In this document: one piece after another, positions 23,150 through 50,319 of the stretch
Position numbering within the stretch: position 1 is the stretch's first letter
Layout: each line of letters opens with the position of its first letter
Virus record (IMG/VR): IMGVR_UViG_3300045988_171958
Coordinates: 64,001 to 128,000 of that record
Length of the DNA stretch: 64,000 nt
Reading direction: 5' to 3' (one strand)
Origin: a virus
The notes under the pieces: model-generated
Told to the model about the DNA's origin: nothing
Databases searched by the model: none
The model's input: the letters and a program-made list of their open reading frames with translations, nothing else
Made by a program: the position numbers and the translations under genes

Positions 23150-26100
23150 TTATTGATTATAATAAGATTTACCATAACAATATAAGTTAACTGTATGACT
23201 AGTAGAAGCATCAGTACCAATATGTATATTCTTTGGAATCTTATCAATAGGACATACAAATGTATATTCATAAGATGAAGTACCAAGTGTAGAAGCATCA
23301 GTACCTTGTACTGCAGTTAATGTATGTTTGGTTGCATTTAATGTATAATTATAAGTTTTGGTCCAATCCTTTGTTGATGTACCAGAAGTAGCAGTAACTT
23401 TATAATCAGAAATAGAAGCTGTAGTATCATAGGTTTGTGGATCAAATGCAGTTATTGTCTTATCATCACTACATGTTAAAGTACCAGTAAAATCAACTGT
23501 TGCTCCATAATTTTTAAGGGTAAATGTACAACTAGCAGTTGATCCTCCATAAGAGATAGTACATGTAACATCAGTAGTATTACCGTCAGTTGCATTTTTA
23601 CCAGCAGATACTGTAACTTTATTTGTACTTGTTGTACTATTACCATAATCCCAATTATATGTTACACCTGGATCATCAATTACAATAAAATCACCAAAAT
23701 TAACACCATCAGTTGAAGTGGCCATTTCACAAACAATATGTACACTTAAATCAAATGTTGAAGCATTTGTATCAAAGTATGTATGTTCAATAGTTTGTGT
23801 TGTATTTGTTTCATTAACATTTGTACCACAATAAACATAAAGATTATATATAGCAGTCATAGATGTTACTTCAAATGTCCACTCATAATCTTTTAATTCA
23901 TATTTTTTATTTATTTCATGGTTTTCTATTGTAGTAGATATATCTACACTATCTAATTTAAACGTTCTAATACCAATTACATCAGGAGTGGTTGTAACTT
24001 CTATTGTTTTAGTAGTTTTATCATACTTTTTACCATCACATAACCAATTGTATTTTATTATTGCATTTGAAGGTAAATTTTCAATAAAAGAAGGCCCTAT
24101 AAATACTTTAGTATTATTCTGTACTGGTTTACCATTTTTCTTGCTTAATTTAATTATTGCTGAAAAAGGACTAACAACCTTTATTCCGGTACGATCTTCA
24201 GTAGCACCTATTGTACATTTTATAGGTTTACTTATACTAGTAACACTTTTACATTTATCATAATTTGTACTATCAGTTTTAAAATTATCTTCATGGACAT
24301 TAATAGTTGTATTCTCATACTTTTTAATTCTAGTAAACTTTGTGATATATGCTGATTGTATTTTTGCTCCTTCAGAAGATATAGATTTATCAATAACTAG
24401 GTTTGCACAATTAAATGTTTTGGTTATTTCAAATTCTGCTGATTGTGTACCTTTACCATTCGGTGTTCCTTGTTGCACTACAGGTGCACTAGCAGTATTT
24501 TTATTGTAAGTGTATTCTAATTTTATAGTTCCTAATGGTCTTTCTTTAATACCTGTACTTACTCCTCCTGTTACTGTATAGAATTCTAATTTCTTAGAAT
24601 AATTAGTAGTATCATTAGACTTATCATCTATTTCTTTTAATAATTTAACCAATTTATTACCAGTCCAATTATTCACACCAGGTGTTATAATTGAACCAGA
24701 TTCACCTTCATTCTTATCATAAATTAAATGACAAATTTTGCTCTTTATAGTTTTAGAATCTAGATATACTTTTGTTTCATCAATTCCTTCAGAAGGTTCA
24801 AAAGACCAACTATAATAATTATCAACATCAAGTTTTCCAGCTGGTATTTTAAAATATGTATAAGTTAAAGATGTTGAAGGTTTTGTCAAGTCCGGAGTTG
24901 AAACTTTAGGATCAAATCTAGTAGATGCAGCATTGGTATAAGGGGTATCTTCAATGGGAATATTCCATTTTGTATCAACATTAATCTTAAAGAATGTGTC
25001 CTTTCCTGGTTCATACTTAGGTTCATCCGAAGCTGATATTGGTTCATTACCTCCAGAAGCACTTACCATTATCTTATCATCTATAGTATTTAATGTTATA
25101 TTATCCCATGTTAAAACACCATTATCTAAAGTAACTTTTCCTATAAGAATACCTGTTTTAATAGATGTATTACCCGATTTACAATCATTTATATCTATAA
25201 GTTCATCATATAAATTTAATGTACCATTTCCATTATCTATAATACTATTAAGTTTCTCTGATGTAAATTTTATAGTACCTGGCAAAGTTTTAGGATATAA
25301 AGGAGTTTTGTTACTTAATTTAGCAGGTATCATCGTAATAAATACATTATAATCATTTACTAAAGAAAGATCATCCACGGTATTTAAATATGTTTGCCCA
25401 TAATGTTTAAGAGTAAATGTACAAGTTGAATGATATGTTTCTTTATAAGTTGCTGTACATGTAACTATTTTATCTTTAGAATTATTATACCCTTTACCTG
25501 GTTCTAAATCAACTTTTGTATTATTTCCATTTGCTTCTGTTATAATATTGCCATTATCTTTCCATGAATATGTTACTTTAGGGTCATCAATTTCTATCCA
25601 ATTATTATAATCACTACCATTTTCTGTTGTTCTATACCAACATCTAACATATACATTTAAATTAAATGTTGATGCATTTTCAGCCCAATATAAGTGCTCA
25701 ATTGTTTCTGCTTGTGTTTGTGTTTTGGTAGAATATATAACAACACTATATTGATAACCAGTACCCGTAGTAACTACAAATTTCCATTCATATCCTAACT
25801 GGTATCTTGTAATGAATGTTTGTCCTGAAATTTCTGGATATGTAGAATTATTTTCATATTCATCTGTAACAGTACATTCATCTAATGCAAATGTTCTAGT
25901 ACCTGTTGTTGAAGGTGTAGTTGTAACTTCTATTGTGTTAGTGGTTTCACCATAAGATTCACCATCTAATTTCCAAATATATTTAATTGTTCGTTTTTTA
26001 GGTTTAACCATTTTATTACTTGCTGGACCAACAACAGTCTTACTACTATTAGAAGATATTCCATTCATCTTTAATCTATCAATTATGGCAGAAGGAATAG

Positions 26101-29100
26101 CAACTACAGTAATATTATTTTCTGTATTTTCTGTACAACCTATTGTACATTTGATAGGTTTATCTATTGTGGTAGTACTACTACATTTATCATAATTTTC
26201 ACCGTATTTTGTAAATGTTCCTTCTTTTATATTTAAAGAAGCTTTATTCCATTTTACTCCAGCAGTAGTAAACTTTGTGATATATGCTATATCTTCATTA
26301 TTTCCGGTTGCTGATATTGATGTATCTACTAAACAACTACAATTTATTTGATTTGATACTTTAAATGTTGCTGAATTAGTCTGTTCACCTGCAGTTTTAC
26401 CATTTTGAGTGACCTTAGTAGTAGCACTAGTACCAGTCTTTGTATAATCTAATTTTAAAGTACCTAATGGTCTACTATCTTGAGCTCCAGTTACACCTCC
26501 AATAACTTTATAAAATCCTACTTTATCTTTATTTTCTTTTATTTCTTTTGTTAAAATGTAAGAATCCTTTGTCCATATCCACTCATTAAATTCATCAGTA
26601 ATATTTTCTCCTCTTGGTTTAGGATTATTAGGATAATTTATTTTTACAGTTCTCTTAGTGTTATTACTTAATGTTACTCCAGTTACTCCTTTATCAGGAG
26701 TAAATGACCATTTATAATAATCATTAACATCTAATTTTTCTCCTGGTACCTCAACATCAAATGTAGATTGTCCATTAAATGTAGGATCAGAAGTATCTGT
26801 ATATGGACTATCAACATCAGGAACATTCCATGAAGTTGAAACAGATATAGTAAATTTACCATCTGAACCTGCAGTATAATTTGGACTATTTGTTGGTGTA
26901 ACATCATGTGTACCTTCTTCTGCTCCAACAGTTACATTATCCAATTTGATAGTTGTCCATGTTAATGATGCAGAATCTTGTGTATATGTACCTATATCTA
27001 ATGTAGTAGATTTAAAATCTTTATTACCAGAGACACTTAATGAACCTGATCCACTTTTTTTTCTACTACTAAATGTTAATATTGCTGGAAGGCTATCAGG
27101 ATATTCTGTTGAAGTACTACTACGTTTTGTCGGAGTTGATCCTACATACACATGTCCATCAGATAAAAATGGAGTGGCTAAATAACCTCCATAATCTTGT
27201 CCAAATCTATATAAGTTAAATTCTACAGTACCAGAATATCCTTCTGCTGAACTTACTGTAACAGAAATAATTTTACCTAAGCCTAGGTTATCCATACTAG
27301 TTCCTGGAGTTACAGATGAAACATTAACTGTTGCTGTGTTATTTTTATTACTATCTGTTCCTACCCAAGTATATTTAACACCAGTAATACTTGTACTATC
27401 ATTTTTCCAATCATCAGTACCTACCTTTGATTGTAATTGATAACCAGCAACTTTTAATTCCCATTTAGTTGAATCCCAATATATTTTTTTACTTGTATAA
27501 GCTTCTAAAGTAATCTTAATTCTAAATTGCTTCTGTTGGGATGTTATTGTAATTGTACTACTATTTAATTCATTATATTTATTATCACCATTAAACCATG
27601 CAACATAAATAACATAAGTTCCTGGTTTTGTTATATGTACAGTACTTTCTCCAGTAGTATCTAATGATTGCCAATTTTTAGTATCAGTACCTTCAACAAC
27701 TGCCATTTTAGCAGTATATGTAGTATCAACTAATGGGCCTACAGAACCAGATGATGATTTAGTTGTTGTTTGGGTATCGCCAATCCATCCATCTGGACTT
27801 TCTGGATGTATACTAAAACCATACATATAATTCCATGTCTTCTTACCAGTATGTTTGTAATTTACTGTTAAAGCAGATATTGATTTTACTCCTAAATATG
27901 TACTTACAGGAACATTATATTTAAATTCTTGACTTGAACCTTCAAATGTTGCAGTAGGTACAGTAGTTGGAAAATTACCTTCTGATAACTTATCGGAATA
28001 ATTATATATGTATGTACTTATATTCTCACTTGACCCAGTATCACCTGATGGGTTAGGATCTGGTGATGTTATATTAGATACAGTAAATGCGCCATAATCA
28101 ATAGATTCATTATAACTTTTATCGGCAGGACCCACTGGTTTAGATGTGGTACAATTTACTCCAGATGTTACAAAAGTATAAGCTATTTCATCATGCCAAC
28201 CTTCTTGCCCATTTTGTGGTACTGTTATTGAATTTCCTTCGTATGTTATACTACTATTATTAATATCTACTACTCTTATCTTAATAGTATGGTTTATTGG
28301 ATCTGCTGTTTTATAATATCCTGATGTATATTTGTATATTCCTTCATTTACATCAGTCCATTCATCAGAAGATTTCAAATCAAGAGAACAATCTCTATCC
28401 CATGTTGCATCATTGCTTTGTATATATTTAGTAGTAGAATCTGACCAACTTCCTGTATCTACTTTATATTGATATTTATAATTAGCAGGGTTGGGTTGTA
28501 CAGATCCGCTAAGTACAATACCATTGGCAGGGTTTGCAGGTTTAGAACTAATTATATTGCTACTTACAGATATTGAATAATCTTGCTTCTTACTAGTTGC
28601 AGATTCTGTTTCTACAGTACCTGATGATTTAGATATAATAATAGTTGCACCATACCAAGGAATAGTAGTATAATTTACACCAGGAGTAAGGTTTTTTTGT
28701 CCTGTAACATACAATTGTTTAGCTGATTTGAGACTATAATTGGCACTTGTACTCTTACCATCAACAGGGTATTTGGTGCTCCCATCACAACTATTTATAC
28801 CTTCACCAGTTCCTTTTATAGTAATAGTACCAGATATGTTAGTACCATTTTGAGATATAGTTATAGTAGATGGGCTTGGTGTCAGTACACCATCTTGATA
28901 AGTAGATCCTGAAAATGATATAGTGCCAGATGTTGCTGATGAATTTTTAGTAGTAGATGTAAATGTAAGTGTACCATCACTAGCAGAGGCATACCAATTA
29001 CCTATTATTGGCGGATTAGAAGCCAATGTTGCAGTAAAACTATCATCAGTATTGTCATTATTCCATGTTTTGCTTGCCTTAGAAAATGTCAAATCTTGAG

Positions 29101-31027
29101 TACCAGTATCTTTCCAGGATAATGTGGCATTTCCAAATGCATGATTAGCAGCACCTATAGCAGGAAGTTTGATATCTACACTTTTAAATTCTTTTAATGT
29201 CCAATATTCTTGATTTGTCGGAGTATTTGCGGTATTGGATATTGTCCAAGTACGTTCAGAAACACCTGAAGTAAAACCTTGTCTGAATGTAATATCTGGA
29301 TGTAACTTTATTGTAACATCACCTCCTTTATAAGATACTGCATCATTAGATCCTTTAGTTATAGTTACTTTACCACCACTATAAGTATTTACCCAAGGCC
29401 TGCTTATTGTTGGCATTATAACAGAAACAGATTTTGATGATGCGTTGTAATTCCATCCAGTTGTCTTTTCTGTACCATCTGAAGTTGATATTCCCCCTAT
29501 ACTAACAGTAGGCCAACCATGGCCATATCCATCATTATAAGTTGTAGTTGTCTTACTTCCTTGTGTGACTTTCCATTTCATATTGAATGATGGATTATTC
29601 CAATGCATTCCATGCTGTGTTAAAGTCAATGCTTGATATGGTTGACCTTTGATATCTTTAGGTGTAATGTTTTGTGCACAGCAATTGGTGACAGTCATAT
29701 TCTGTCTAAGTGTACAAGAACGAGCTGATCTATTAGTAGGAGGTGTCCAAGATACACCGGTAACAGAACCAGTAGTAGAACCACCGTTAGAAATAGAAGT
29801 ATTATTTAATGATAATGAAAGAGTACCACCAACACTTGGTTTGTCATCCCCTTGGTCATCAAATGTTACCTTTGTTGTATTTCCGGAGGTTGTAGAAAGA
29901 TGTGCCCAAGATGGATTGCTATCTATAGACCAAGCATAAGATATTCCTAACTTAGAACCTGGTTGCCATATTCTGAATGTATAAGCGTTAGTACCTGTAG
30001 GCATAGTAGAGCTTTTATTTATCATCAAACTGTATGTTACATCAACATATCTCTTATAAGAAGAGAAACCATCATCATTAGCAGTAGAAGTTGTGAATCT
30101 GTCATATTTACCATCATACCATGCTTTTGCTTCTACATTTACACTACCACCATCATAAGAAACAGAATTGTAATTATCATCATATTCGAAAACTAATCTC
30201 TTAGGATAAGTAGGCAGAGTATTGTATGTAAATGAAAGATAGTTAGTATTGTTCCAAGTAGCTGAATTCTTATATGGGTTATAAGTATAAGAATGATTTA
30301 TTCTGTATTCTGATTTATTGTTTGTTAATGTACAGAAAGTAGGAGAACTAGACTTTGCATCATCATGATTTGATATAGAAATATAGAGTTCTCCATAAGG
30401 ATCTGCTATATTATAGAAAGTTTGGAAAGCATCATATTTTTCTGTTACAACACGGCCACCAGTTGCTTTAGTCTTACCATCACTTTTATAGTTGTCATTT
30501 GTACCGTAATTATAGCTAGTTAAATCATATTTTATGCTTGGTTCATATTGTATTTTGTGTCTACGGTAACCTGCAGTAAAAGTTGTACCTTTTACAGATA
30601 AGTTAGTTCTAGATATGACGTTGTTGTTGGAATTACTGTAAGGACTTACACCATGCTTAGTATCATCTAATCCTGTTGGTTCAACAAATCTGGAATCTGT
30701 TTTGCTTCCAAATGGATAGAAATTGAAATCTCCATATACAGATCCAATCGTATTCTTATTAGCTGTTGCCCAATTGAAATAAGCAACATAATCATTACCA
30801 GTCTTTACTTCCCTATTAGGGCTAGTCATGTGATTAGTAGTATAGAAATAACAAGTAGTATTATTTCCTGTAAATTCTGCACCATTAGGATGAGGAATAG
30901 GTTGGGATACATTACCAGAATTTGCTAATTCTACAATAACCCAATCAGAATCATCAAAAGAATGTCCTCTTGTATTGTAATTGTAATTTCCACTATTTGA
31001 AGTAAAATAATTTCCGTAATCTGCCAT
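23150..31027 (-). CDS. giant Ser/Thr/Asn-rich beta-repeat protein, 2625 aa (tail fibre or adhesin-like structural protein; Ig/BACON-like modules suspected)
   Basis: Uninterrupted 7.9-kb ORF. The composition and repeated modules are typical of phage fibres or adhesins. It is the last gene of a three-gene minus-strand block. Confidence 0.9.
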   Translation of the reverse strand: MADYGNYFTSNSGNYNYNTRGHSFDDSDWVIVELANSGNVSQPIPHPNGAEFTGNNTTCYFYTTNHMTSPNREVKTGNDYVAYFNWATANKNTIGSVYGDFNFYPFGSKTDSRFVEPTGLDDTKHGVSPYSNSNNNVISRTNLSVKGTTFTAGYRRHKIQYEPSIKYDLTSYNYGTNDNYKSDGKTKATGGRVVTEKYDAFQTFYNIADPYGELYISISNHDDAKSSSPTFCTLTNNKSEYRINHSYTYNPYKNSATWNNTNYLSFTYNTLPTYPKRLVFEYDDNYNSVSYDGGSVNVEAKAWYDGKYDRFTTSTANDDGFSSYKRYVDVTYSLMINKSSTMPTGTNAYTFRIWQPGSKLGISYAWSIDSNPSWAHLSTTSGNTTKVTFDDQGDDKPSVGGTLSLSLNNTSISNGGSTTGSVTGVSWTPPTNRSARSCTLRQNMTVTNCCAQNITPKDIKGQPYQALTLTQHGMHWNNPSFNMKWKVTQGSKTTTTYNDGYGHGWPTVSIGGISTSDGTEKTTGWNYNASSKSVSVIMPTISRPWVNTYSGGKVTITKGSNDAVSYKGGDVTIKLHPDITFRQGFTSGVSERTWTISNTANTPTNQEYWTLKEFKSVDIKLPAIGAANHAFGNATLSWKDTGTQDLTFSKASKTWNNDNTDDSFTATLASNPPIIGNWYASASDGTLTFTSTTKNSSATSGTISFSGSTYQDGVLTPSPSTITISQNGTNISGTITIKGTGEGINSCDGSTKYPVDGKSTSANYSLKSAKQLYVTGQKNLTPGVNYTTIPWYGATIIISKSSGTVETESATSKKQDYSISVSSNIISSKPANPANGIVLSGSVQPNPANYKYQYKVDTGSWSDSTTKYIQSNDATWDRDCSLDLKSSDEWTDVNEGIYKYTSGYYKTADPINHTIKIRVVDINNSSITYEGNSITVPQNGQEGWHDEIAYTFVTSGVNCTTSKPVGPADKSYNESIDYGAFTVSNITSPDPNPSGDTGSSENISTYIYNYSDKLSEGNFPTTVPTATFEGSSQEFKYNVPVSTYLGVKSISALTVNYKHTGKKTWNYMYGFSIHPESPDGWIGDTQTTTKSSSGSVGPLVDTTYTAKMAVVEGTDTKNWQSLDTTGESTVHITKPGTYVIYVAWFNGDNKYNELNSSTITITSQQKQFRIKITLEAYTSKKIYWDSTKWELKVAGYQLQSKVGTDDWKNDSTSITGVKYTWVGTDSNKNNTATVNVSSVTPGTSMDNLGLGKIISVTVSSAEGYSGTVEFNLYRFGQDYGGYLATPFLSDGHVYVGSTPTKRSSTSTEYPDSLPAILTFSSRKKSGSGSLSVSGNKDFKSTTLDIGTYTQDSASLTWTTIKLDNVTVGAEEGTHDVTPTNSPNYTAGSDGKFTISVSTSWNVPDVDSPYTDTSDPTFNGQSTFDVEVPGEKLDVNDYYKWSFTPDKGVTGVTLSNNTKRTVKINYPNNPKPRGENITDEFNEWIWTKDSYILTKEIKENKDKVGFYKVIGGVTGAQDSRPLGTLKLDYTKTGTSATTKVTQNGKTAGEQTNSATFKVSNQINCSCLVDTSISATGNNEDIAYITKFTTAGVKWNKASLNIKEGTFTKYGENYDKCSSTTTIDKPIKCTIGCTENTENNITVVAIPSAIIDRLKMNGISSNSSKTVVGPASNKMVKPKKRTIKYIWKLDGESYGETTNTIEVTTTPSTTGTRTFALDECTVTDEYENNSTYPEISGQTFITRYQLGYEWKFVVTTGTGYQYSVVIYSTKTQTQAETIEHLYWAENASTFNLNVYVRCWYRTTENGSDYNNWIEIDDPKVTYSWKDNGNIITEANGNNTKVDLEPGKGYNNSKDKIVTCTATYKETYHSTCTFTLKHYGQTYLNTVDDLSLVNDYNVFITMIPAKLSNKTPLYPKTLPGTIKFTSEKLNSIIDNGNGTLNLYDELIDINDCKSGNTSIKTGILIGKVTLDNGVLTWDNITLNTIDDKIMVSASGGNEPISASDEPKYEPGKDTFFKINVDTKWNIPIEDTPYTNAASTRFDPKVSTPDLTKPSTSLTYTYFKIPAGKLDVDNYYSWSFEPSEGIDETKVYLDSKTIKSKICHLIYDKNEGESGSIITPGVNNWTGNKLVKLLKEIDDKSNDTTNYSKKLEFYTVTGGVSTGIKERPLGTIKLEYTYNKNTASAPVVQQGTPNGKGTQSAEFEITKTFNCANLVIDKSISSEGAKIQSAYITKFTRIKKYENTTINVHEDNFKTDSTNYDKCKSVTSISKPIKCTIGATEDRTGIKVVSPFSAIIKLSKKNGKPVQNNTKVFIGPSFIENLPSNAIIKYNWLCDGKKYDKTTKTIEVTTTPDVIGIRTFKLDSVDISTTIENHEINKKYELKDYEWTFEVTSMTAIYNLYVYCGTNVNETNTTQTIEHTYFDTNASTFDLSVHIVCEMATSTDGVNFGDFIVIDDPGVTYNWDYGNSTTSTNKVTVSAGKNATDGNTTDVTCTISYGGSTASCTFTLKNYGATVDFTGTLTCSDDKTITAFDPQTYDTTASISDYKVTATSGTSTKDWTKTYNYTLNATKHTLTAVQGTDASTLGTSSYEYTFVCPIDKIPKNIHIGTDASTSHTVNLYCYGKSYYNQ
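23504..25396 (-). repeat. intragenic tandem module, copy 2 (about aa 1878-2508 of the giant protein)
   Basis: Collinear with copy 1. Examples: RPLGTIKLEYTYNK vs RPLGTLKLDYTKTG; ISKPIKCTIGATE vs IDKPIKCTIGCTE; KTIEVTTTPDVIGIRTFKLD vs NTIEVTTTPSTTGTRTFALD; SCTFTLKNYG vs TCTFTLKHYG. Confidence 0.8.
25397..27199 (-). repeat. intragenic tandem module, copy 1 (about aa 1277-1877)
   Basis: See copy 2. An upstream partial third unit ends GTVEFNLYRFGQ. Confidence 0.8.
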
Positions 31028-31062: not shown

Positions 31063-32640
31063 TTACTTACCATTTGTTGATCCTTTATACTTTAAAGAAT
31101 CTTTTTTGTAAAACAATTCTATATGTACATCGGTTTTCCAATTATTTGTTTTGTTCTTTCGACCTATCTGGAATTTTTCTGCCGACTCTGAATTTGCTTG
31201 ATATTTAGCCCAGTATTCACCGGATCTTCTCTTGGTGACCATATCTATACCGCTATCTTCATTATGTGTAGCTGTAGTATTTGTGGGTACATCAGAAAAA
31301 TTGATACATTCATATTTTTGAAATGTGTTTTCACTATTGTTTGCATATTCATCATTTGGCAAATCTGTCCAGATAGGTATTCTCACAAATTTGAATGCTT
31401 TAGTACCGCATACCTCAGCCCCATCTTTTAAACTTGTTGATATTGAATATCTGTTATAACTAGATTCACCTTCTGGTCTACCACCAACATTTCCAGGTTT
31501 AGTAGAATAATTAAGTAAGGTAGCGGTCAAGTACTCGTTGATATTATTAGGTACTACTGAGGTGATTCCTCTAGCAACAAGATTAGCTCCTATAGTACCT
31601 CCTATTTTTGGATCTGATTCTACACCATTCCACCATACTGTCTTACCTCCATCTGGACTTACTCCAAACTCTATATAAAGCAATATTTCTCTTCTTTTTA
31701 CATCCCAATTTGAATACCAATGCTCCAATACACTAGTAATTGGCGGATTTTCATAATCTGTATAATCCAAATTTACAAACTTCAGGTGGGTATAATAGAA
31801 AATGTTAGGTTTTTGCCAAACTTTCAATAAAGTGAATTCTTTAGGTAGGCTAGCATTTGGTAAAGAACGTTGACTTTCTTCATTTGTAAATGGAACTGTT
31901 CTTGGATGACCTAGCTTAGTAGATCCAAAAGTAGATGAAGGTTCAAAATATTCCCATCCTAAAGCTTCATTAACAAAACCTATGAATCTCACTTCAGTAT
32001 AAGCTACTTCTGGTGTATTATTAGGTCCTATAAAAAAAGAAACAGTATAGTCAGTAGCAGAATCCTTATTTGGTTGGTTTATCCAAGTATTAGAAGAAGA
32101 AGAAACTGAAGAACGTACTATATCAAGATAATGATATTGAATATAAGTACTTCCTTCTGATTTGTTTATAGGATAATAAGTTTTATTTGTTATTCCATTA
32201 GAATTAGAAATATTTGTAAATAAAAATTTACCTTCATCAAATACAATGTTATTATCTGATTTAGTGTATTGATAAGATGCAAGGATAGGACCAAACTTCA
32301 AAGTATAAGTAAGTTCTCTTGCCTTCAAATCAAAAGAACCTGTTCCACCAGCAGGTTCTATTTCAAAAACTTTGTTAGGGTCAAAATCAAAAGTAGATTG
32401 CTTGGTAGGATAAGCTGAAGTAACAGATCCTGTCCCTATACTGAAGTCTCCTTGCAAACCACCATCATTAGGATCAGGAACAAATTGCAGGGTGTAAGCA
32501 GAGCCTTGGAATTCCAAATTAGACCAGTCCCAAGAAGTACCCCTGAATACAAAAGATCCAAGCTTACTGTTTGTTACTATCTTTGGTAAGGCTTTACTAT
32601 CACCCTGAAATACATATCCACTTTGAAGTATTACTGGCAT
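31063..32640 (-). CDS. hypothetical structural protein, 525 aa (fibre/baseplate-associated candidate)
   Basis: Long ORF directly upstream of the giant gene on the same strand. Confidence 0.7.
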   Translation of the reverse strand: MPVILQSGYVFQGDSKALPKIVTNSKLGSFVFRGTSWDWSNLEFQGSAYTLQFVPDPNDGGLQGDFSIGTGSVTSAYPTKQSTFDFDPNKVFEIEPAGGTGSFDLKARELTYTLKFGPILASYQYTKSDNNIVFDEGKFLFTNISNSNGITNKTYYPINKSEGSTYIQYHYLDIVRSSVSSSSNTWINQPNKDSATDYTVSFFIGPNNTPEVAYTEVRFIGFVNEALGWEYFEPSSTFGSTKLGHPRTVPFTNEESQRSLPNASLPKEFTLLKVWQKPNIFYYTHLKFVNLDYTDYENPPITSVLEHWYSNWDVKRREILLYIEFGVSPDGGKTVWWNGVESDPKIGGTIGANLVARGITSVVPNNINEYLTATLLNYSTKPGNVGGRPEGESSYNRYSISTSLKDGAEVCGTKAFKFVRIPIWTDLPNDEYANNSENTFQKYECINFSDVPTNTTATHNEDSGIDMVTKRRSGEYWAKYQANSESAEKFQIGRKNKTNNWKTDVHIELFYKKDSLKYKGSTNGK

Positions 32641-32692: not shown

Positions 32693-33409
32693 TTAATGTT
32701 CAACTGGTATACCATTTATTTGTGTAATACTATCGATTATTTCAAAAAATTGATATCTATCTCCTTCATCTTTATTAATTATCTCTTCATCATTATCATA
32801 ATTTGTTATATCCACAGATGTACTTGTATAACCAATATATGTTTCTTTAGATGAACTTAAATAGGTATATAATGTATCATTATTTTGGGTATAATATGTT
32901 TGACTACTTGTATAATATATCCATTTATAATAATTATAAGATACATATATACTAAATCCAGGATTATCACTATCATCAAAAGATAATGTTTTTGAAGTAT
33001 TATCACTATAATATGCTACTACCTTGATACATTTATAATCCGATATATTTATCGTTCCATATTCTATTCCACCTGTATTAGTATATTGTGAATCATCATA
33101 ATTGTATGATGGGCCATTTATTATAGATATAACATATTTTGTAATAGTAACTTTTGGTTTATTCCATTTAAATTCACATTTTATACCATGATATTCTGTT
33201 GTACATGAATATGGTAAATCTAATGGCTTGGATATCCAATTAGCAGTGTCAATAGAATAATTACCATTTTTATCTGGATATTCTATAAATAAACTATGTT
33301 CAAATAGATCGTTTGGTAGTCCAGTCAAATTTCCATCATAAACTTCTTTATCTCCTGATTTAGTATATGCTCTTGCTGATAATTTTCCTAACCCATACAT
33401 TTCTGGCAT
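32693..33409 (-). CDS. hypothetical structural protein, 238 aa
   Basis: The first ORF of the minus-strand block. Tyr/Asn/Ser/Thr-rich, like the giant protein. Confidence 0.65.
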   Translation of the reverse strand: MPEMYGLGKLSARAYTKSGDKEVYDGNLTGLPNDLFEHSLFIEYPDKNGNYSIDTANWISKPLDLPYSCTTEYHGIKCEFKWNKPKVTITKYVISIINGPSYNYDDSQYTNTGGIEYGTINISDYKCIKVVAYYSDNTSKTLSFDDSDNPGFSIYVSYNYYKWIYYTSSQTYYTQNNDTLYTYLSSSKETYIGYTSTSVDITNYDNDEEIINKDEGDRYQFFEIIDSITQINGIPVEH

Positions 33410-38587: not shown

Positions 38588-38712
38588 GGTATATATGAAA
38601 TAGATGAACCACATTCATTACATTTTACTATATAAGGGATATGTGCTCTTTTATTGATAGAATATTCTGTCAAATCTATTTCATTACCGCAATTGTTACA
38701 TTTAATCTTCAT
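38569..38712 (-). CDS. 47-aa zinc-ribbon micro-protein (not in the track)
   Basis: Hand translation gives MKIKCNNCGNEIDLTEYSINKRAHIPYIVKCNECGSSISYIPNKDGY, with two CxxC pairs. The ATG overlaps the stop of the ndk-like gene in another frame. Confidence 0.45.
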   Translation of the reverse strand: MKIKCNNCGNEIDLTEYSINKRAHIPYIVKCNECGSSISYIPNKDGY

Positions 38713-39142
38713 CTTTGTCTAGTTCATTATCTATTTTGAAACAGATTTCTGCTTCTCTTTCAACATTTTCTTCAGAATCAGAACTATGCATACAGTTCTT
38801 CATATCATCTTTACCATATTTGTCTCTTACTTCATCTTTTACTTTCTTCAAGTCTTTTATAGGATCTTTACAATCTTTGTAAAGTTTGTAAGCAATACAG
38901 TTACCTGAACTCATATAATGGCAAAGATCATCATAAAAATCTTCCTTTTCATGCACTTTATAAAGGTCCCTTGCTTCATCCAAGTTCATCTTTATAGTCT
39001 TATAGTTAGTGATGTCCCAACCAGCATTTTCTAACATATCTTCAAAATCATCTTGAACATCTAAGAATTCTGGTTTGAGAATTGCGAAGCCATTGAATTT
39101 CTTCTGCATGGCTTCACAAATATAGTTGGTTAAGCTTTTCAT
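38702..39142 (-). CDS. ndk: nucleoside diphosphate kinase-like protein with an N-terminal MKSLTNYICE leader
   Basis: Collinear with NDK: FAILKPE (FIAIKPD), YMSSGNCIAYKL (YMxSGPVVAMV), NCMHSSDSEENVEREAEICF (NxxHGSDSxxSAxREIxxWF). Confidence 0.7.
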   Translation of the reverse strand: MKSLTNYICEAMQKKFNGFAILKPEFLDVQDDFEDMLENAGWDITNYKTIKMNLDEARDLYKVHEKEDFYDDLCHYMSSGNCIAYKLYKDCKDPIKDLKKVKDEVRDKYGKDDMKNCMHSSDSEENVEREAEICFKIDNELDKDED

Positions 39143-39146
39143 TTAC

Positions 39147-39662
39147 TTAGAATTCTTTAAGATACTTTTTAAGATTTTTAATATCTTCCTTTCTGAATTT
39201 TTCATTTGGTACAAGATCGAATCCCCAAGAACATGTACCTTTATCTAATATTTCTTTAATGTCTTTACCGTCCTTTTCACTGTCAATAAGATCTTTATTG
39301 TAAAGAACATAATATTTTACAGATTTGCCACGATACTTACTGTTTGTCTTTATAATAGCAATACCTGTCTTATCAAACTTCATACCATTGTAAAATTCTG
39401 TCTCACTATCAGTATTACCCTTGACTTTAATGCTACTCTTAAGGACTTTAGCAATTTCTACCATGCCACGGATTTGAATACGATATCCATCAGTATCATA
39501 AGCAATACATAATGCCTTTTCACCTGGGTTGAAATTAAAGTCTTCTGATTGGCGTAATCCATCCTTATGTAAGAACATTCCATTTTTATTAGAACCATTA
39601 GTTTGGAATTGTTCTGTTATGTTATTTATGCTTTCATAAATGTAATTAGTTAAACTTTTCAT
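39147..39662 (-). CDS. hypothetical protein, 171 aa, with an N-terminal MKSLTNYIYE leader
   Basis: ORF. Its N-terminal decapeptide is near-identical to that of the neighbouring ndk-like gene, while the rest is unrelated. Confidence 0.65.
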   Translation of the reverse strand: MKSLTNYIYESINNITEQFQTNGSNKNGMFLHKDGLRQSEDFNFNPGEKALCIAYDTDGYRIQIRGMVEIAKVLKSSIKVKGNTDSETEFYNGMKFDKTGIAIIKTNSKYRGKSVKYYVLYNKDLIDSEKDGKDIKEILDKGTCSWGFDLVPNEKFRKEDIKNLKKYLKEF

Positions 39663-42600
39663 TTTTGTATAAGTATTCTTGTATGTTTTTTCTGTTGGTG
39701 GTCAACATTTCCTTCTATGCTGTATCTCACATCTATATTATAATAACCAGAAACATTTTTAGAAGCTTCATCATATAAGCTAAGTATCATAGCATTAGAA
39801 TTAGAAGTTATAGATGGCTTGTTCTTATTTAACAATGATAAATTCTTTACTGACCATTTGGTTGTCTTATCTAATATGAATGGGAATTTCACATTATCAA
39901 TAGTAGCAAATATCAAATCATCTTCTTTAAAATGATTGACTGGATATTTTTCTTCCAATACCATTCTATTTATTAAGAAAGTATCAGATGACCTATATTT
40001 TTTCATTACAATCTTTGTTTCATCATCCGGACAATATTCTATCTTGTCATGAGGATCAAGATCCATGTCACCAATAAGCTTGTCTTCTGTATCTTGTGAT
40101 ATGAGAACAGCAAACCAGTTAGTGTCATCATGCATAAGATAGAAGTCATAGTTGAATGTATTGTCATCTCCTATAGTGAACTTTTCTGTACCATCATTAT
40201 TAAAGAACATTCTATAAAGTTCTGCTAGTTCAGAAGGTTGTTCCCAATGATTTGGAGAATACCACTTAGTATCATATATCTTACTATTGTACTTTAGTTT
40301 TGATATTTTACTTATGTTCAAACCAAGTCTCTTTCTTTTTTCTAAATCATTCATCTTATACAGATACAAATCATAGATATGTATTCTGTTCAGATATTTC
40401 TTGTTGTTAGAAGTAGATACGGTCTGTTGCATGCTACTGATAAGTGAATCTATAGACTTCTTTACATTTTCTGAAGTAATTTCTTGCTTCATGTTCATAT
40501 CCACTTCATCATTCTTAGGAGTAGAATCATAATCTGTCTTTACATTATCTCCTCTGAATTTACATTCTGATTTCCAAGGACAGTTGCATTCCATATTGCA
40601 TACTGAATCTGAACTGTTATTCCAGATAGGGATAGCAATATCTTGATATATTCTAGGTATACCAGACAAGGTATATCCACCAAATTCATACGTTCTTCCA
40701 TTTGGTAACTTTATTTCACCTGTGGTAGCCAATCTTATTGTTACTGTTGACTTGTGTCTCAGATGTTCATCTATATAGAAAAGCTTCCATTTGTCAGAAG
40801 TAGCATCCCAATCAATATTTCCTTGCTTATTGTAAGCTGGATCACCTAACCCTATATCTTTCTTCATCATTATCAAATCATTGTTTGATATTGTATATTC
40901 ATGAAGATTTACACATTCATTAGGTTTTGTCGTACTCAGATCTTTTAAGTCTAATCTTATCTTAGCATAGTATTCATTGTTAGAGTCTACATCAAACAAT
41001 ACATCTACATAGAATTTGCTTAAAGAATATCCTTGATTGTCAGGTATATTAAGTCCATTATTGAACATGAATATTGGGATAACAGAATTTCCTTTCTTAT
41101 ATATTAATTTACTGTTCTTTACTCCTAAATTGTATATATAGCATTTAGAAGCAATATAGTTGCAGAAATTGTTCATTGTATTAGTAGAAGCATTATTAGA
41201 ATCACTATCTGAAATATCAGAAGAAGCATTGTCTATCATATACTTCAACTTGTCAAAGAATCTTATGTCATTCACTTCTGCTAATCCTGGAAGATACATA
41301 TAAGAATTGAAGTTTACTGAATCATCTTCTATAGACTTTATTTGAGAAAACAATGATTTGTCTGTTGTATACAAATTTATGTTTGCTTTCTCTGATTCTG
41401 TCATTCCATCAAACTCTGGATCATTAGGATCTCTATATCCTTCTTCTCCTGGTTTAAGTTCTTTTACTTCTGTATAATTGAAATATTTGTATTCTAAAGT
41501 ACCTACTTTCAATTGGAACTCTGGTGCTTTCAATATGAAGTCATAATAATACCAGTTGCCATTGCAGTTTACTGACAATCTGTATTTCTTATCTATCCAG
41601 TAAGTCATATTGAATGACTTTACTAATGACTTTGGTATCATTATGAAGTTCTTATAAGCAACATCACCTTTTCTTTGAAAGAAATTGAATGATGAACTAT
41701 ATATCTTCTTACCACTCTTACTGAGCACTAAGGTAACATCAAAGAAATCTTCATCTTCATCAGACAAGAACCAAATAGGTATTTTAGCGCAGATATCATT
41801 AATATATATTGTAGGATTTTCTGTTGTCTTTCCTAATGTTTCAGAATTTGAAAACTCATTATAGCATTCATCAAAGTAAGATTCTTGGTTGTATATGTAT
41901 ATTATATCAGATCCTTGAAATCTTACTGAAGTATGTGTACTTCCAATCCAAGTAGGAGTTTCTGTTACATGAATGCTAGGGCTTACTATATATTTGATGT
42001 CATTCATCCAGCAATGTTGCTTCATACTAGATGATATAGTTGTCATTATAGGTAAGAAGTACTTCTTCCAGTAATATTCTACCATAGACATCTTTATGTA
42101 CATGTCTTCTAATCTCCAGTTATAGTAAGGTCTCCAGAATTTTATGTCTTGTTCATCAAACTTATCATAAACCATCTTGTCAAACAAGTTTTCTGAAATA
42201 GGCTTACCTTCTCCTATAAGCTCTTCTGTCCAATACTGTTTGTCTAAAACTTCTGTGTATCTGTCTATATCCATCCATATAGAATAAGCAGAAGCTTTTC
42301 TGAAATGTTGCCAAGACCAAAGATTATCAGACAAAGTATCAAAATTGTCTTGTATATATTGCTCTAAGAATTGGTTGTCGGTTTGATTGAGTCCTCTTAT
42401 AGTGATATGATTTCCATAGCCAAACCAATCAAGAGAATCTTTAGCTGATTCATAGTTTCCACATTCCCCTTTGATATGCATATAATTCAGAAGAAGTTCC
42501 TTCAACTTATGAGAATATTCTTCTTCATCTATATTGTCAGATTTTACATCAGTAAAGTATATTGACTTCATCAGATCTTTAGGAATATTTATTCCCATAT

Positions 42601-43141
42601 TCTTACCATTTATGATAAGCTCACTGTTTTCCATGTGGAATTCTGCTCCTATAGTATAAGGGCACCAGTTATTAGATATGTTGATGAGGATATTAGTTAA
42701 CCAAGTAGTTTCTTCTTGACTTAATGTAACAACATAAAATGTCGCTACTGATACTGTTGATTTTCTTCCTTCTACTTCTACATTATCTATTACTGTAAGG
42801 TCGTCTGTATAAAGTTCATTACAAAATTCACTTTCTTCTATGTTGAGAGGATCAAATATATTACTGTTGTTCTCTATACAATTCTGTATATATGCAGAGC
42901 TTAGCAACCAGAAATGTGTATCATCTTTACTGTCATTCTTGAGTTTTACAGTTATTTGGTCATTAGAATTCACTATGATTCTTACAGGCTTAATATAATA
43001 TCTGTCTATACTAAGCTTGTGAGAAGTTGTATCTGAAGTGAACCAGTCTACATAATTTCCTATTTCATATTCATATCCTATTGGTTCATTTTGCCAATCC
43101 TTCAATGAGTATATATGTCCTGTATGATCGATGAATTCCAT
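39659..43141 (-). CDS. large hypothetical structural protein, 1160 aa (baseplate/tail candidate)
   Basis: 3.5-kb ORF in the minus-strand block. No catalytic motif recognised. Confidence 0.8.
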   Translation of the reverse strand: MEFIDHTGHIYSLKDWQNEPIGYEYEIGNYVDWFTSDTTSHKLSIDRYYIKPVRIIVNSNDQITVKLKNDSKDDTHFWLLSSAYIQNCIENNSNIFDPLNIEESEFCNELYTDDLTVIDNVEVEGRKSTVSVATFYVVTLSQEETTWLTNILINISNNWCPYTIGAEFHMENSELIINGKNMGINIPKDLMKSIYFTDVKSDNIDEEEYSHKLKELLLNYMHIKGECGNYESAKDSLDWFGYGNHITIRGLNQTDNQFLEQYIQDNFDTLSDNLWSWQHFRKASAYSIWMDIDRYTEVLDKQYWTEELIGEGKPISENLFDKMVYDKFDEQDIKFWRPYYNWRLEDMYIKMSMVEYYWKKYFLPIMTTISSSMKQHCWMNDIKYIVSPSIHVTETPTWIGSTHTSVRFQGSDIIYIYNQESYFDECYNEFSNSETLGKTTENPTIYINDICAKIPIWFLSDEDEDFFDVTLVLSKSGKKIYSSSFNFFQRKGDVAYKNFIMIPKSLVKSFNMTYWIDKKYRLSVNCNGNWYYYDFILKAPEFQLKVGTLEYKYFNYTEVKELKPGEEGYRDPNDPEFDGMTESEKANINLYTTDKSLFSQIKSIEDDSVNFNSYMYLPGLAEVNDIRFFDKLKYMIDNASSDISDSDSNNASTNTMNNFCNYIASKCYIYNLGVKNSKLIYKKGNSVIPIFMFNNGLNIPDNQGYSLSKFYVDVLFDVDSNNEYYAKIRLDLKDLSTTKPNECVNLHEYTISNNDLIMMKKDIGLGDPAYNKQGNIDWDATSDKWKLFYIDEHLRHKSTVTIRLATTGEIKLPNGRTYEFGGYTLSGIPRIYQDIAIPIWNNSSDSVCNMECNCPWKSECKFRGDNVKTDYDSTPKNDEVDMNMKQEITSENVKKSIDSLISSMQQTVSTSNNKKYLNRIHIYDLYLYKMNDLEKRKRLGLNISKISKLKYNSKIYDTKWYSPNHWEQPSELAELYRMFFNNDGTEKFTIGDDNTFNYDFYLMHDDTNWFAVLISQDTEDKLIGDMDLDPHDKIEYCPDDETKIVMKKYRSSDTFLINRMVLEEKYPVNHFKEDDLIFATIDNVKFPFILDKTTKWSVKNLSLLNKNKPSITSNSNAMILSLYDEASKNVSGYYNIDVRYSIEGNVDHQQKKHTRILIQK

Positions 43142-43144
43142 TGT

Positions 43145-43381
43145 TTAATAAGATGATATGTGCTTGAATTTTCTGATTGCTTCAACATGCTTGAACATGG
43201 TGATGAGTTGAATATCTATAAGTTGTAAGAAAGCTACTAATGTTGGGTTTCCTCTGAACAGAATAGGTGGAAGAACTCTTATCAGAATTCCATCCCTAGC
43301 ATAGTCATATTTTTTCCTTCCAAGATTTGTTGATTTTTGATATCCTAGAAACTTATAATCTAAACTTTGCTTTATATCCAT
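43145..43381 (-). CDS. hypothetical protein, 78 aa
   Basis: ORF packed between two neighbours. Confidence 0.5.
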   Translation of the reverse strand: MDIKQSLDYKFLGYQKSTNLGRKKYDYARDGILIRVLPPILFRGNPTLVAFLQLIDIQLITMFKHVEAIRKFKHISSY

Positions 43382-43382
43382 T

Positions 43383-44255
43383 TTAAATAGTATTAGTATT
43401 TATGAAGTAGTCAGCAGAATGGTTCTTCTGAATCCATTCATCTATCTTCTGCATTTCTTCATTAGCCATGTCTCTCCATATACTGTAATTTAAAGTAACT
43501 CCACCTGGTAGTTTGAATTCAAATGTACCAAGAATAGTAGCCATAGAACGTAAGCCAAGACAAACACAATATCTGAAGAAATAGTAGTTCTTGTACAAGT
43601 CTTGTATCTTAAGTCTCTTATATACATTGAGCATCAAATCAGAATGTCCAATAGCTCCTAGTACAACAAGGTCATTACTATAAGTATTGTAATTATATGT
43701 TACTGGAGTATTGAATATGTAGTCAAAAGTATCAAGTTCATATAATGCCGCTGTAACATCAGTCAATGTATATCCACCACCTGATCCATATACATCAGAT
43801 AGGCTACCACCAACTCCAGATGCTATAGCTGAATTGTTCAGTATCATTCTTTCCAAAGAAAAGTCACCCATAACACCATAAGACCAACTATCTGTTGCTT
43901 TGTACAATCCATTTACAGAAAGGATTTGTGGTGGCAACTTAGCAATCATGTTAGCGCCACATTTTGTAAACTCCTTGAATGGAAGACAATACCAACGTTC
44001 TTCTATAGCTCCATCGCAATTTTCCCAGAAATATTGTGCTGCTTGCAATATCAATGGTGGAATAGCTGATGGTTGCATTGGTAAATTTATTGCACATGTC
44101 TGGGTTAATTCTTGAATGATTCTTTGTATGAACTGATAATCTATTTGATCCTCTATTTTTTGTTTTCTCTTATTATATTCTTCTATAGAAATTTCTTTCT
44201 GTATTAAAGGATTATTGCCTGGATTTATGTTTTGTATGCAACTCATTGAATTCAA
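43383..44255 (-). CDS. hypothetical protein, 290 aa (structural candidate)
   Basis: ORF overlapping the upstream gene by 4 nt. Confidence 0.65.
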   Translation of the reverse strand: MNSMSCIQNINPGNNPLIQKEISIEEYNKRKQKIEDQIDYQFIQRIIQELTQTCAINLPMQPSAIPPLILQAAQYFWENCDGAIEERWYCLPFKEFTKCGANMIAKLPPQILSVNGLYKATDSWSYGVMGDFSLERMILNNSAIASGVGGSLSDVYGSGGGYTLTDVTAALYELDTFDYIFNTPVTYNYNTYSNDLVVLGAIGHSDLMLNVYKRLKIQDLYKNYYFFRYCVCLGLRSMATILGTFEFKLPGGVTLNYSIWRDMANEEMQKIDEWIQKNHSADYFINTNTI

Positions 44256-45244
44256 TCATTTAACTTATTTAAAAATTGAGTTAATAATTCATCTATAAAA
44301 TCTTTTCCTTCTTGTAATGACCAAACTTCTTTAAAATTTAAATTATTTCTTTTAGCTGTTTCTCTTTTATTTACATCATATATAGTCCATGTCTTTATTG
44401 CATTTAAATAATATTTATGGCCATTTTTATATTTTGATTTCCATGATTCTAATTGATTTTTATCATCTACATTATTTTTGTTGTAAGGATGTTTACCATG
44501 GGTCCAATTTCCATTTAATTCAATAAAATAATTCAATTCTGGAATATAAAAATCACATTGCCATGGATATTTCTCTTTATCTCTATATTGTCTTTTTACT
44601 GTTGGAAATTTAGATTTTATATACAAGAAAAGATCTTCTTCCGGTTTAGAAGAATTAAATGAATTATGTTCTTTTAAATTTAAATTTCTATTATATTGAA
44701 CCTTTTCAGAAGACATTATATCTGACATTTTTGTTTTCCAAATAGGAGATTTGGATATCCAATCAACATTATATTTTTCAATACATGTCTTTTTATATTT
44801 CGCTTTTATAACTTCTGATTTGAATGGGTGATCTACTCCATATTTTCTTAAAGAAGTTTCTATGGCAATTTTTCTTTTTTCTTTATCTTTTAATGGTGTT
44901 TCATATCCATATCTATTTAAACAAGTTTGCTTATATTTTTCTAATTTTTCTTTTGCATTATATGAACATTCATGGCAACAATATATAGTAAATGGTTTTT
45001 TAAATTTATTTGTAAAGACTACTTTATTTCCACAAGTTGGACATATTGGTCTTATTTCTATTTTAAGTCTCATTCTTAAAATTGTTTCTTGCCTAGATAA
45101 AGAATCATTATATCTATTATCCAAATAATCAGATATATTAGGATATTTACTTAATTTTCTAATTTTCCAATAATCATTTTTTCCATCTTTATTAGAAATA
45201 ACTTTCAATATTATATTATCGTGATTTGTTTTAATATTTTCCAT
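44252..45244 (-). CDS. free-standing endonuclease-like protein (Zn finger + KYG-x-D/E-x-P repeats + Vsr/DUF559-type PD-(D/E)xK core), paralogue 1
   Basis: CPTCGNKV...CCHECS. Triple repeat RYGYETP/KYGVDHP/KYNVDWI. Core CDFYIPELNYFIELNGNWTHGKHPYN. Strongly AT-rich. Paralogous to 49363..50319. Confidence 0.65.
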   Translation of the reverse strand: MENIKTNHDNIILKVISNKDGKNDYWKIRKLSKYPNISDYLDNRYNDSLSRQETILRMRLKIEIRPICPTCGNKVVFTNKFKKPFTIYCCHECSYNAKEKLEKYKQTCLNRYGYETPLKDKEKRKIAIETSLRKYGVDHPFKSEVIKAKYKKTCIEKYNVDWISKSPIWKTKMSDIMSSEKVQYNRNLNLKEHNSFNSSKPEEDLFLYIKSKFPTVKRQYRDKEKYPWQCDFYIPELNYFIELNGNWTHGKHPYNKNNVDDKNQLESWKSKYKNGHKYYLNAIKTWTIYDVNKRETAKRNNLNFKEVWSLQEGKDFIDELLTQFLNKLND

Positions 45245-49362: not shown

Positions 49363-50319
49363 ATGGAATATGATAAAATTATTACAAATTTATTAATAAG
49401 TAATAAAAATAAAATTAGAAATGGAATATTAAGAAAAATAAAATTAAAATATCCTAATATATTATCTTATTTAATAAAAAGATATGATGATTCGGAATCA
49501 ATATCTGAAACTATAAGAAGAATTCAATATAATATAGAAAAAAGACCAGTTTGTAAAGTATGTGGTAAAAAGGTAAACTATATTTGTAATGGGAATTATA
49601 GAAATGTTTGTTCTTTTAAATGTGGAGAAATATATTGTAGAGAAAGAAGGTTTAAAACTATGATAGATAAATATGGTACACCATATCCTTATGAAAATAA
49701 AGATATAATGCGAAAAATGAGGGAAAATTTAAAAAATAAATATGGTGTTGATAATCCTTCTAAATTAGAAAATGTAAAAGAAAAGAAGAAAAATACATTT
49801 ATAAAACATTATGGTGTAGATAATTATTTCAAAACTGAAAAATCAGTTAAAAGATCCCATACAAAAGAATGTATAAATAAACAATATTTGACAAAAATAA
49901 AAAATAATTCATTTGGAAAATCTAAACAGGAAGATACAATATATGAAAAAATAAAAGAAGTATATCCAGATGTTATAAGACAATATAAAGATAAAATAAG
50001 ATATCCATATAATTGTGATTTTTATATTCCTGAGATAGATTTATTTATAGAATACCAGGGTTATTATACTCATGGTAAACATCCATTTAATATTAATAAT
50101 GAAAATGATAAAGAATTAATGGAGAAATATATAAATAAATATGGTAATAACAATCAACAATATACTATATGGTGTGTAAAAGATGTAGAAAAAAGGAATA
50201 CTGCAAAAAATAATAATTTAAATTATATTGAATTATTTAATTTTAAAAAATTAGATGAATTAATTGAAATAATAAAAAATAAAAACTATATTAAAAATAT
50301 TAGTAATTTAGTAATTTAA
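49363..50319 (+). CDS. free-standing endonuclease-like protein, paralogue 2
   Basis: CKVCGKKV...CSFKCG. Repeats KYGTPYP/KYGVDNP/HYGVDNY. Core CDFYIPEIDLFIEYQGYYTHGKHPFN. Extremely AT-rich. Confidence 0.65.
   Translation: MEYDKIITNLLISNKNKIRNGILRKIKLKYPNILSYLIKRYDDSESISETIRRIQYNIEKRPVCKVCGKKVNYICNGNYRNVCSFKCGEIYCRERRFKTMIDKYGTPYPYENKDIMRKMRENLKNKYGVDNPSKLENVKEKKKNTFIKHYGVDNYFKTEKSVKRSHTKECINKQYLTKIKNNSFGKSKQEDTIYEKIKEVYPDVIRQYKDKIRYPYNCDFYIPEIDLFIEYQGYYTHGKHPFNINNENDKELMEKYINKYGNNNQQYTIWCVKDVEKRNTAKNNNLNYIELFNFKKLDELIEIIKNKNYIKNISNLVI

Follow-up and report, generated by a model that had tools for sequence, protein, structure and literature searches.

Two neighbouring genes with a common leader

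The 64-kb stretch of DNA analysed here (the window) occupies roughly 124.65-188.65 kb of the 293,853-bp sequence CACVDK010000001.1 (GCA_902729945.1) of an uncultivated jumbo phage. Two adjacent genes on its minus strand, one encoding an enzyme of the nucleoside diphosphate kinase (NDK) type and the other a protein of 171 amino acids (aa), both begin with MKSLTNYI(C/Y)E, a leader resembling the capsid targeting sequence (CTS) of phage T4. The locus comprises the following features.

38702-39142, minus strand: NDK-like gene, 146 aa, putative cargo; leader MKSLTNYICE, a linker of about 8 residues and then the NDK fold
39113-39142, minus strand: leader codons of the NDK-like gene, ATG AAA AGC TTA ACC AAC TAT ATT TGT GAA
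39147-39662, minus strand: gene for the 171-aa protein, putative cargo; leader MKSLTNYIYE, no family assigned
39633-39662, minus strand: leader codons of the 171-aa gene, ATG AAA AGT TTA ACT AAT TAC ATT TAT GAA

The N-terminus of the NDK-like open reading frame (ORF) at 38702-39142 reads MKSLTNYICEAMQKKFNGFAILKPEF and that of the 171-aa ORF at 39147-39662 reads MKSLTNYIYESINNITEQ, so that nine of the first ten residues are identical. When the NDK and the 171-aa protein, both shortened by their first 12 residues, were compared by blastp, no similarity was found (best E = 7.9). The shared leader on two genes with unrelated bodies, which the earlier note on this DNA had reported, is therefore a real observation. 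The ATG of the 171-aa gene overlaps the stop codon of the 1160-aa gene upstream of it (ATGA).

The NDK matches PF00334 with 72.6 bits, against a cut-off of 27, its residues 19-136 covering profile positions 4-131 of 135. The catalytic motif N-x-x-H-S-S-D is intact (N116, H119, S120, S121 and D122) and, like K23, which corresponds to the Lys of strand β1, is invariant in a 40-sequence family alignment; these catalytic residues align with N-x-x-H-G-S-D of solved NDKs. The top PDB matches are NDKs of the NME7/NME5 type; when the protein is aligned with solved NDKs, gaps of some 8-11 residues open up ahead of the R-x-x-x-G segment, in the region of the Kpn loop. The 171-aa protein finds no family match in Pfam or PHROG, and a Foldseek search of its AlphaFold2 (AF2) model against PDB and BFVD returned nothing significant, the best TM-scores being about 0.3 and the PDB hits mostly lipocalin-like. 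In the AF2 model of the NDK the body is predicted with a pLDDT of about 90 and the leader forms a separate helix (residues 4-12, pLDDT about 53), while the model of the 171-aa protein (pLDDT 77) has a β-rich body preceded by a low-confidence leader helix at residues 4-15. Both models, therefore, place a detached leader helix of low confidence ahead of a confident fold.

At the level of DNA the two leaders differ at five nucleotides, four of the differences being synonymous (AGC/AGT, ACC/ACT, AAC/AAT and TAT/TAC) and one non-synonymous, and the similarity between them ends exactly at codon 10. A second pair of unrelated genes, of 81 and 399 aa (see below), shares MKKLSEFV and differs there by AAA/AAG, AGT/TCA and GTA/GTT, the serine codon family having been switched. 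Comparison of the 40 nucleotides upstream of the starts of leader genes revealed no similarity. Given this synonymous divergence and the unrelated upstream DNA, conservation acts on the peptide.

Conservation of the leader among homologues was assessed with a strict pattern, M..[LIFVM]..[FYW][ILVM].E at the N-terminus. It is present in 106 of 120 listed NDK homologues, on contigs of up to 473 kb. For the 171-aa protein there are 68 homologues, 63 of which carry it, at identities as low as 47%; both families retain the leader to about 50% identity. The logo of the NDK family, in percentages, is M100 K76 S61 L83 x Q44 Y76 I83 x E83, with alternatives mainly at position 4 (L83/I8/F6), position 7 (Y76/F17) and position 8 (I83/L10). 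Conservation collapses from position 11, where A or S accounts for 47%. A candidate (I/L/V)-x-E cleavage site at residues 8-10 is present across the family, its outer residues being I83/L10 and E83.

Further leader genes and the likeness to T4

Additional leader genes, for which the earlier note had proposed a search, were sought in the window together with 10 kb on either side from CACVDK010000001.1, a total of 83.4 kb with 113 ORF-genes. Strict-leader N-termini were found on seven of the 113 (about 6%), against 0.08 expected from the frequency of the motif inside the same 113 proteins. The cargo bodies of the strict-leader genes are mutually unrelated. Genes with leaders or leader-like N-termini, other than the two above, are these.

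63443-63688, minus strand: 81-aa putative cargo gene, DUF3175-like (PF11373, 29.3 bits); leader MKKLSEFVNE
63167-63415, plus strand: 82-aa gene; degenerate leader MKSLNEFLIKEE with Glu at 11 and 12, matching a relaxed pattern only
62687-62938, plus strand: 83-aa gene; MKTLVEILEG, with no aromatic residue at 7 and no Glu at 10, failing the strict pattern
L010:4954-6153, just right of the window, minus strand: 399-aa gene; leader MKKLSEFVVE
Just right of the window: 231-aa gene; leader MISISEYLNE
Just right of the window: 203-aa gene; leader MKQLVEYMKE
Just right of the window: 244-aa gene; leader MESLTNFINE
Left of the window: 156-aa gene; leader MINFSQYISE

Three genes at 62.7-63.7 kb had previously been credited with the same type of leader. 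The gene at 63443-63688 (minus strand) fits in full, but those at 63167-63415 and 62687-62938 (both plus strand) are loose look-alikes, and, to judge by its N-terminus, the membership of the latter is doubtful. The other recognisable enzymes of the window (NrdD, NrdG, DnaK, RNA ligase, dNMP kinase, dUTPase, NUDIX, helicases and lysozymes) do not carry the leader.

The leaders most alike are found on neighbouring genes: MKSLTNYI[CY]E at 38.7-39.7 kb, and MKKLSEFV[NV]E, the MKKLSEFV.E common to the 81-aa protein and the unrelated 399-aa protein, at 63.4 kb and to the right of the window. Such near-identity on neighbours suggests local exchange or tandem duplication of leader-cargo modules, though not a recent one, and in this the locus is reminiscent of the internal-protein loci of T-even phages.

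CTS-tagged internal proteins are established for T-even phages (PMC9026906). The T4 CTS is MKTYQEFIAE (PMC8442874), exactly as given in the earlier note, and translation of ipII and ipIII from the T4 record gave the same sequence; IPI begins MKTFKEFTST. Mutational mapping in IPIII of T4 attributed targeting to residues 4 and 7 and processing to residues 8 and 10 (PMC9026906), and experiments have shown that the CTS suffices to direct proteins to the capsid (PMC8442874, PMC9026906). The positions conserved in the present leader (4, 7, 8 and 10) are exactly those functional in T4, so that the likeness first proposed, including the (I/L/V)-x-E, is borne out. The 136 kb of T4 served as a positive control for the pattern, Tyr being permitted at position 4; there it matches only ipII, ipIII and gp61.1. 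Other processed head proteins of T4 have similar N-termini, namely gp24 (MAKINELLRE) and Alt (MELITELFDE). The third match in the control, gp61.1 (AF158101 18966-19130, 54 aa, beside the primase gene), begins with a near-perfect CTS, MKTFKEFIKE; it is listed as a hypothetical protein and the T4 record gives it no head-protein annotation.

In T4 the CTS is found on IPI, IPII, IPIII and Alt and is cleaved by gp21; the leader described here is likewise an N-terminal stretch of about ten residues on unrelated proteins. The two have in common M1, K2, S/T3, a hydrophobic residue at 4, an aromatic at 7, I/V at 8 and E10 (MKSLTNYICE compared with MKTYQEFIAE), as well as a small residue after the Glu. 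The likeness extends to gene content, since the clade of this phage has candidate neck genes of the gp13/gp14 type, a gp21-family protease and a gp23-type capsid gene, and the cargo genes are clustered and strain-variable as in T4. There are also differences. Position 4 is Leu/Ile here and Tyr in T4; the tagged genes number at least seven in 83 kb of this genome and 10-15 in each array of the relatives, against three in 136 kb of T4; and the leader arrays of relatives adjoin the protease gene, the leader being extended in some of them (…E-KLKINK[DN]S). The cargo seen here differs from that of T4 in counting a metabolic enzyme, NDK, among its members and in not being basic throughout. The clade protease, moreover, has a long acidic coiled-coil tail fused to it (310-570 aa in total), and the leader system is known from sequence alone.

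Some parallels can be drawn with other systems. The cargo-loading peptides of encapsulins are also short terminal peptides that send diverse enzymes into an HK97-fold shell, but they are usually C-terminal, remain uncleaved and bind the shell rather than a scaffold core, and neither DNA nor injection is involved. The propeptides of phiKZ gp175 and SPN3US gp245 again come from jumbo myoviruses in which a gp21-related protease cuts after Glu at a short x-x-E motif, and SPN3US gp53/gp54 are paralogous head proteins with conserved N-termini (PMC5694885). On Peptidase_S80, too, the protease of the present clade reaches 25.5 bits. The phiKZ and SPN3US propeptides, however, are mostly 80-130 residues long with S/A-x-E sites, in contrast to the T4-type decapeptide and I/L/V-x-E seen here. 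Finally, the Dar (defence against restriction) system of phage P1 (PMC9024508, PMC12810830) is alike in that unrelated proteins, enzymes among them, are loaded into a myovirus head, injected and protect the incoming DNA; it differs in its hierarchical loading through DarA and Hdf and its longer N-terminal regions, with no common cleavable decapeptide.

Leader arrays, head genes and genomic setting

A protease of the gp21 family (Peptidase_S77) was found in several relatives (L135/L136, L147 and L219) and in 80 IMG/VR loci. L135 and L136 are contigs of 371 kb and 317 kb whose NDK is 55% identical to that of the window. In L135 a gp14-like gene is followed by at least ten consecutive genes starting MK.[IL]..YI.EKLKINK, the NDK gene among them, and then by the S77 protease. 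The leader in this array (L135:7310-19009) runs to about 18 residues, MK.[IL]..YI.EKL[KH][IL][ND]K[DN]S, on at least ten genes; this extended propeptide, longer than that of T4, possibly has a second function or a second cleavage site. L147, the closest relative among those examined (about 62% protein identity over syntenic genes), has the order dNMP kinase, 265 aa, 498 aa, gp14-like, 83 aa, 205 aa, protease and Gp23-type capsid gene, in which the protease scores 44.8 bits with PF03420 (Peptidase_S77) and 25.5 bits with S80, and the Gp23 capsid gene 103 bits. In L145, a contig of 410 kb, at least ten strict leader genes and some looser ones stand immediately before the protease and capsid genes, and a homologue of the 171-aa protein is part of that array. 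The arrays in relatives comprise 10-15 genes, each array having its own version of the leader. At 54 clade loci from IMG/VR, 70 strict leader genes stand within 10 kb upstream of the protease and eight within 10 kb downstream, with equal DNA per side, which speaks for a link between the leader and the head genes.

In the protease family the catalytic domain ends in a conserved L-N-E/S boundary and residues 8-10 read [IV]-[YF]-E, while the N-terminal region of the capsid protein contains an invariant I-H-E-I-H-E-A. The resemblance of these hydrophobic-x-Glu motifs to the gp21 sites of T4 is suggestive only. After the L-N-E/S the clade protease (L147:6381-7313) continues into a long acidic coiled-coil C-terminal tail, for a total of 310-570 aa, and from this layout it looks like a self-cleaving protease-scaffold fusion. 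A homologue search seeded with the N-terminus of the L135 protease yielded only fragments on short contigs, and scans of IMG/VR and GTDB genomes with the protease alignment found clade relatives, not this phage. The best candidate from the homologue search for the protease of this genome, P0208, was rejected, as it lies on a 2.2-kb contig of another relative with about 65% nucleotide identity to this genome. The exact place of the L147 prohead protease, after the homologue of the 211-aa gene, is occupied in the window by a 206-aa gene (60056-60676, minus strand) that has a recorded papain-like Peptidase_C1 match and lies on the opposite strand.

Outside the clade, a degenerate DNA pattern of the leader was found at no fewer than 124 sites in IMG/VR. 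Among the matches listed, nearly all are at ORF starts, and many of the leader loci lie on contigs with homologues of T4 gp13-gp23. Several loci on marine T4-like contigs, again among the matches listed, have a protein of about 106 aa beginning MKSFKQFISE between the portal and protease genes. The same matches include a leader-tagged adenylate kinase (ADK; 138 bits) whose domain starts at residue 19, in the same layout as the NDK, along with an HD_4 protein, a cytidylyltransferase-like protein and DUF6267. Judging by these matches, occurrence of the leader on nucleotide-handling enzymes is a recurring theme. Three of them, on environmental viral contigs of IMG/VR, are located as follows.

L037:590-1177: tagged ADK
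L044:36-593: tagged HD_4 protein
L024:2596-3894: tagged cytidylyltransferase-like protein

Within the window the two adjacent leader genes belong to a string of genes with a candidate neck gene at its head, and a second neck-type gene lies further to the right.

39659-43141, minus strand: 1160-aa gene, no assigned function, between the candidate neck gene and the leader genes
43145-43381, minus strand: 78-aa gene in the same string
43383-44246, minus strand: candidate T4 gp13-like neck gene at the head of the string; its 285-287-aa orthologues have a precomputed PF26809 (Phage_T4_gp13) record
57355-58995, plus strand: 546-aa protein resembling the T4 neck protein gp14, matched by phrog_679 ('head closure Hc2') with E = 2.3e-14

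The strain contigs L001-L006 all keep the gene order gp13-like, 78 aa, 1160 aa, 171 aa and NDK, and L137 shows a similar one. The gp14-like protein also matches PF11649 (T4_neck-protein) weakly (E = 3.3e-4, short of the cut-off), and its top PDB matches are gp14 neck proteins (E = 0.014); in the relatives L135, L147 and L219 the gp14-like gene directly precedes the leader array and/or the prohead protease. A tblastn search of the 83 kb with T4 head and neck proteins found nothing, so that kinship to these T4 proteins is visible only at the profile level.

The window has a G+C content of 30.8% and a gene content typical of a large phage, with a split NrdD, an NrdG, DnaK, RNA ligase, dNMP kinase, lysozymes and helicases. 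Near-identical contigs of 258-296 kb are present across many gut metagenome assemblies, and 155 indexed blocks of the assembly collection contain the exact NDK sequence. Searching the phages of GenBank at both the nucleotide and the protein level brought up no close relative, the sole match being DnaK, with 57% identity to Lak megaphages. Neither Rfam nor a tRNA scan gave any hit in the window.

Several further features of the genome may be mentioned. NrdD is split into a 505-aa N-terminal ORF (5880-7397, plus strand) and a 348-aa C-terminal ORF (7624-8670, plus strand) lying 226 nucleotides apart. In T4 nrdD is interrupted by a group I intron; between the halves here, Rfam detects no intron at the gathering threshold. 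The Hsp70/DnaK gene whose product resembles that of the Lak megaphages is at 14618-16573 (plus strand), and since the product of the next gene (16674-17705, plus strand) begins with the J-domain-like MKDYYDILGVSRDASEDDIKRAYK, the two may form a phage chaperone pair. Genes resembling homing endonucleases (DUF7487, phrog_3339) at 44252-45244 (minus strand) and 49363-50319 (plus strand) flank a 1217-aa helicase-like gene; both are present or absent depending on the strain contig (L001-L006), and they are the source of most nucleotide-level matches to distant relatives. A 2625-aa ORF (23150-31027, minus strand) is followed by ORFs of 525 aa (31063-32640, minus strand) and 238 aa (32693-33409, minus strand), none of the three having a PHROG match; as the large ORF is about 1270-1300 aa in other strains, it is variable in length or split. 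An OmpA-domain protein encoded about 6 kb to the left of the window (L011:16481-17614, minus strand) has the signal peptide MKKFILTMLLALTAVFSVNAQ, which looks Bacteroidota-like. Together with the absence of evident Shine-Dalgarno sequences upstream of the leader genes, this hints at a Bacteroidota host. Contrary to these hints, bins of metagenome-assembled genomes containing relatives are labelled Firmicutes.

Role of the leader

Taken together, the results make it probable that MK(S/K)L..(Y/F)(I/V).E is a T4-type capsid-targeting and cleavage leader, with NDK as an unusual enzyme cargo. Because the tag so closely matches the T4 CTS, the tagged proteins are probably packed into the head, trimmed and injected with the DNA. 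By analogy with T4, the NDK, the 171-aa protein, the 81-aa DUF3175 protein and the 399-, 231-, 203- and 244-aa proteins would dock onto the scaffolding core of the prohead through a short N-terminal amphipathic helix, with residues 4 and 7 as the determinants. A prohead protease of the gp21 family (Peptidase_S77) would then cut after Glu10 of the (I/L/V)-x-E and the freed decapeptide would exit the head, while the mature proteins would remain beside the packaged DNA and accompany it into the next host. For the NDK, the cut would leave about 8 residues before strand β1, and so an intact enzyme. The proposal of a functional leader of this kind, made in the earlier note, has been backed by every computational test run, whether of conservation, of other carriers or of gene context.

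A number of observations nevertheless weigh against this interpretation. The predicted isoelectric points of the mature cargos range from 4.3 to 9.0, that of the NDK being 4.6, so that they are not uniformly basic, whereas T4 IPII and IPIII are basic. Basic charge is not treated here as a defining feature, because 'small and basic' does not describe T4 Alt either. There is no enrichment of the T4 late-promoter motif TATAAATA (24 occurrences against about 33 expected), and it precedes only six genes, two of them leader genes, which is uninformative. The gp13-like match could not be reproduced with the local Pfam copy or with PDB sequences. The search for a gp21-family protease, likewise proposed at the outset, succeeded in relatives, but within the 83.4 kb of this genome neither a prohead protease nor a capsid gene was found. 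Finally, the excess of strict leader genes before the protease at the 54 IMG/VR clade loci may partly reflect conserved structural genes filling the downstream side.

The recurrence of tagged enzymes of nucleotide metabolism (NDK here; ADK, an HD_4 hydrolase and a cytidylyltransferase-like protein in viral contigs) would also fit a leader that acts as a docking helix for some assembly other than the capsid, such as a T4-like dNTP synthetase complex, a chaperone or another phage compartment, with no packaging involved. The acidic NDK cargo accords with this, as does the presence of the motif on T4 gp61.1, encoded among T4 replication genes. Most tagged proteins of the clade, however, are small, have no assigned function and are arrayed directly upstream of the protease and capsid genes, and on marine T4-like contigs a tagged protein sits between portal and protease. 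The dNMP kinase, NrdD, dUTPase and NUDIX of the window have no tag, and the position-by-position match is to a sequence experimentally sufficient for targeting to the capsid. We therefore regard non-capsid docking as unlikely.

Recent duplication or gene conversion, with the shared stretch having no function, is very improbable. Nearby genes do bear the most similar leaders and the arrays of relatives do have their own versions, but four of the five nucleotide differences between the window leaders are synonymous, the MKKLSEFV pair has switched serine codon family, the similarity stops at codon 10 and is absent upstream, and orthologues at about 50% identity retain the motif. Local exchange of modules is likely, but on top of selection on the peptide. 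Least credible of all is a translation-initiation or regulatory element acting at the RNA or DNA level (a downstream box or A-rich start): in a genome of 31% G+C such as this, AAA is common as second codon, as are early codons rich in A/T, and no Shine-Dalgarno sequence is evident, but it is the amino acids that are conserved while codons vary, only about 6% of genes carry the stretch, the upstream sequence is not shared and the Rfam scan is empty. Both of these alternatives had been raised in the earlier note, and the synonymous differences combined with the lack of shared upstream sequence effectively exclude them.

If the leader is, as we favour, a T4-type capsid-targeting signal, then what sets it apart from known CTS systems is the number of tagged genes and the enzyme cargo. 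An injected NDK would be an unusual cargo, and a literature search found no report of a virion-packaged phage NDK. Related gut jumbo phages, termed 'Jug', have been described as T4-like in a recent paper, in the text of which a search found no mention of N-terminal leaders, the CTS or internal proteins; nor did a literature search find a paper linking the capsid targeting sequence with jumbo, mega or huge phages.

A broader proposal, which we advance only tentatively and consider unlikely as a whole, is that the leader is the address label for an entire injected set in uncultivated T4-like jumbo gut phages, numbering at least 10-15 proteins per genome and including nucleotide-handling enzymes (NDK here; ADK, HD-domain and nucleotidyltransferase proteins on other viral contigs) that act before phage gene expression. 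Were this true, injected enzymes could, for instance, restore NTP/dNTP pools or weaken those defences of the host that work through nucleotide depletion or nucleotide signalling.

More generally, if the tag works as in T4, a ten-residue pattern would reveal the injected proteins of an uncultivated gut jumbo phage from its sequence, providing a shortlist of such proteins for phages abundant in the human gut. Since injected proteins act before phage gene expression, these would be prime candidates for anti-defence and host-takeover factors. The T4 targeting code would then be conserved far outside the T-even phages, which would be relevant to protein delivery by CTS fusion in other phage chassis.

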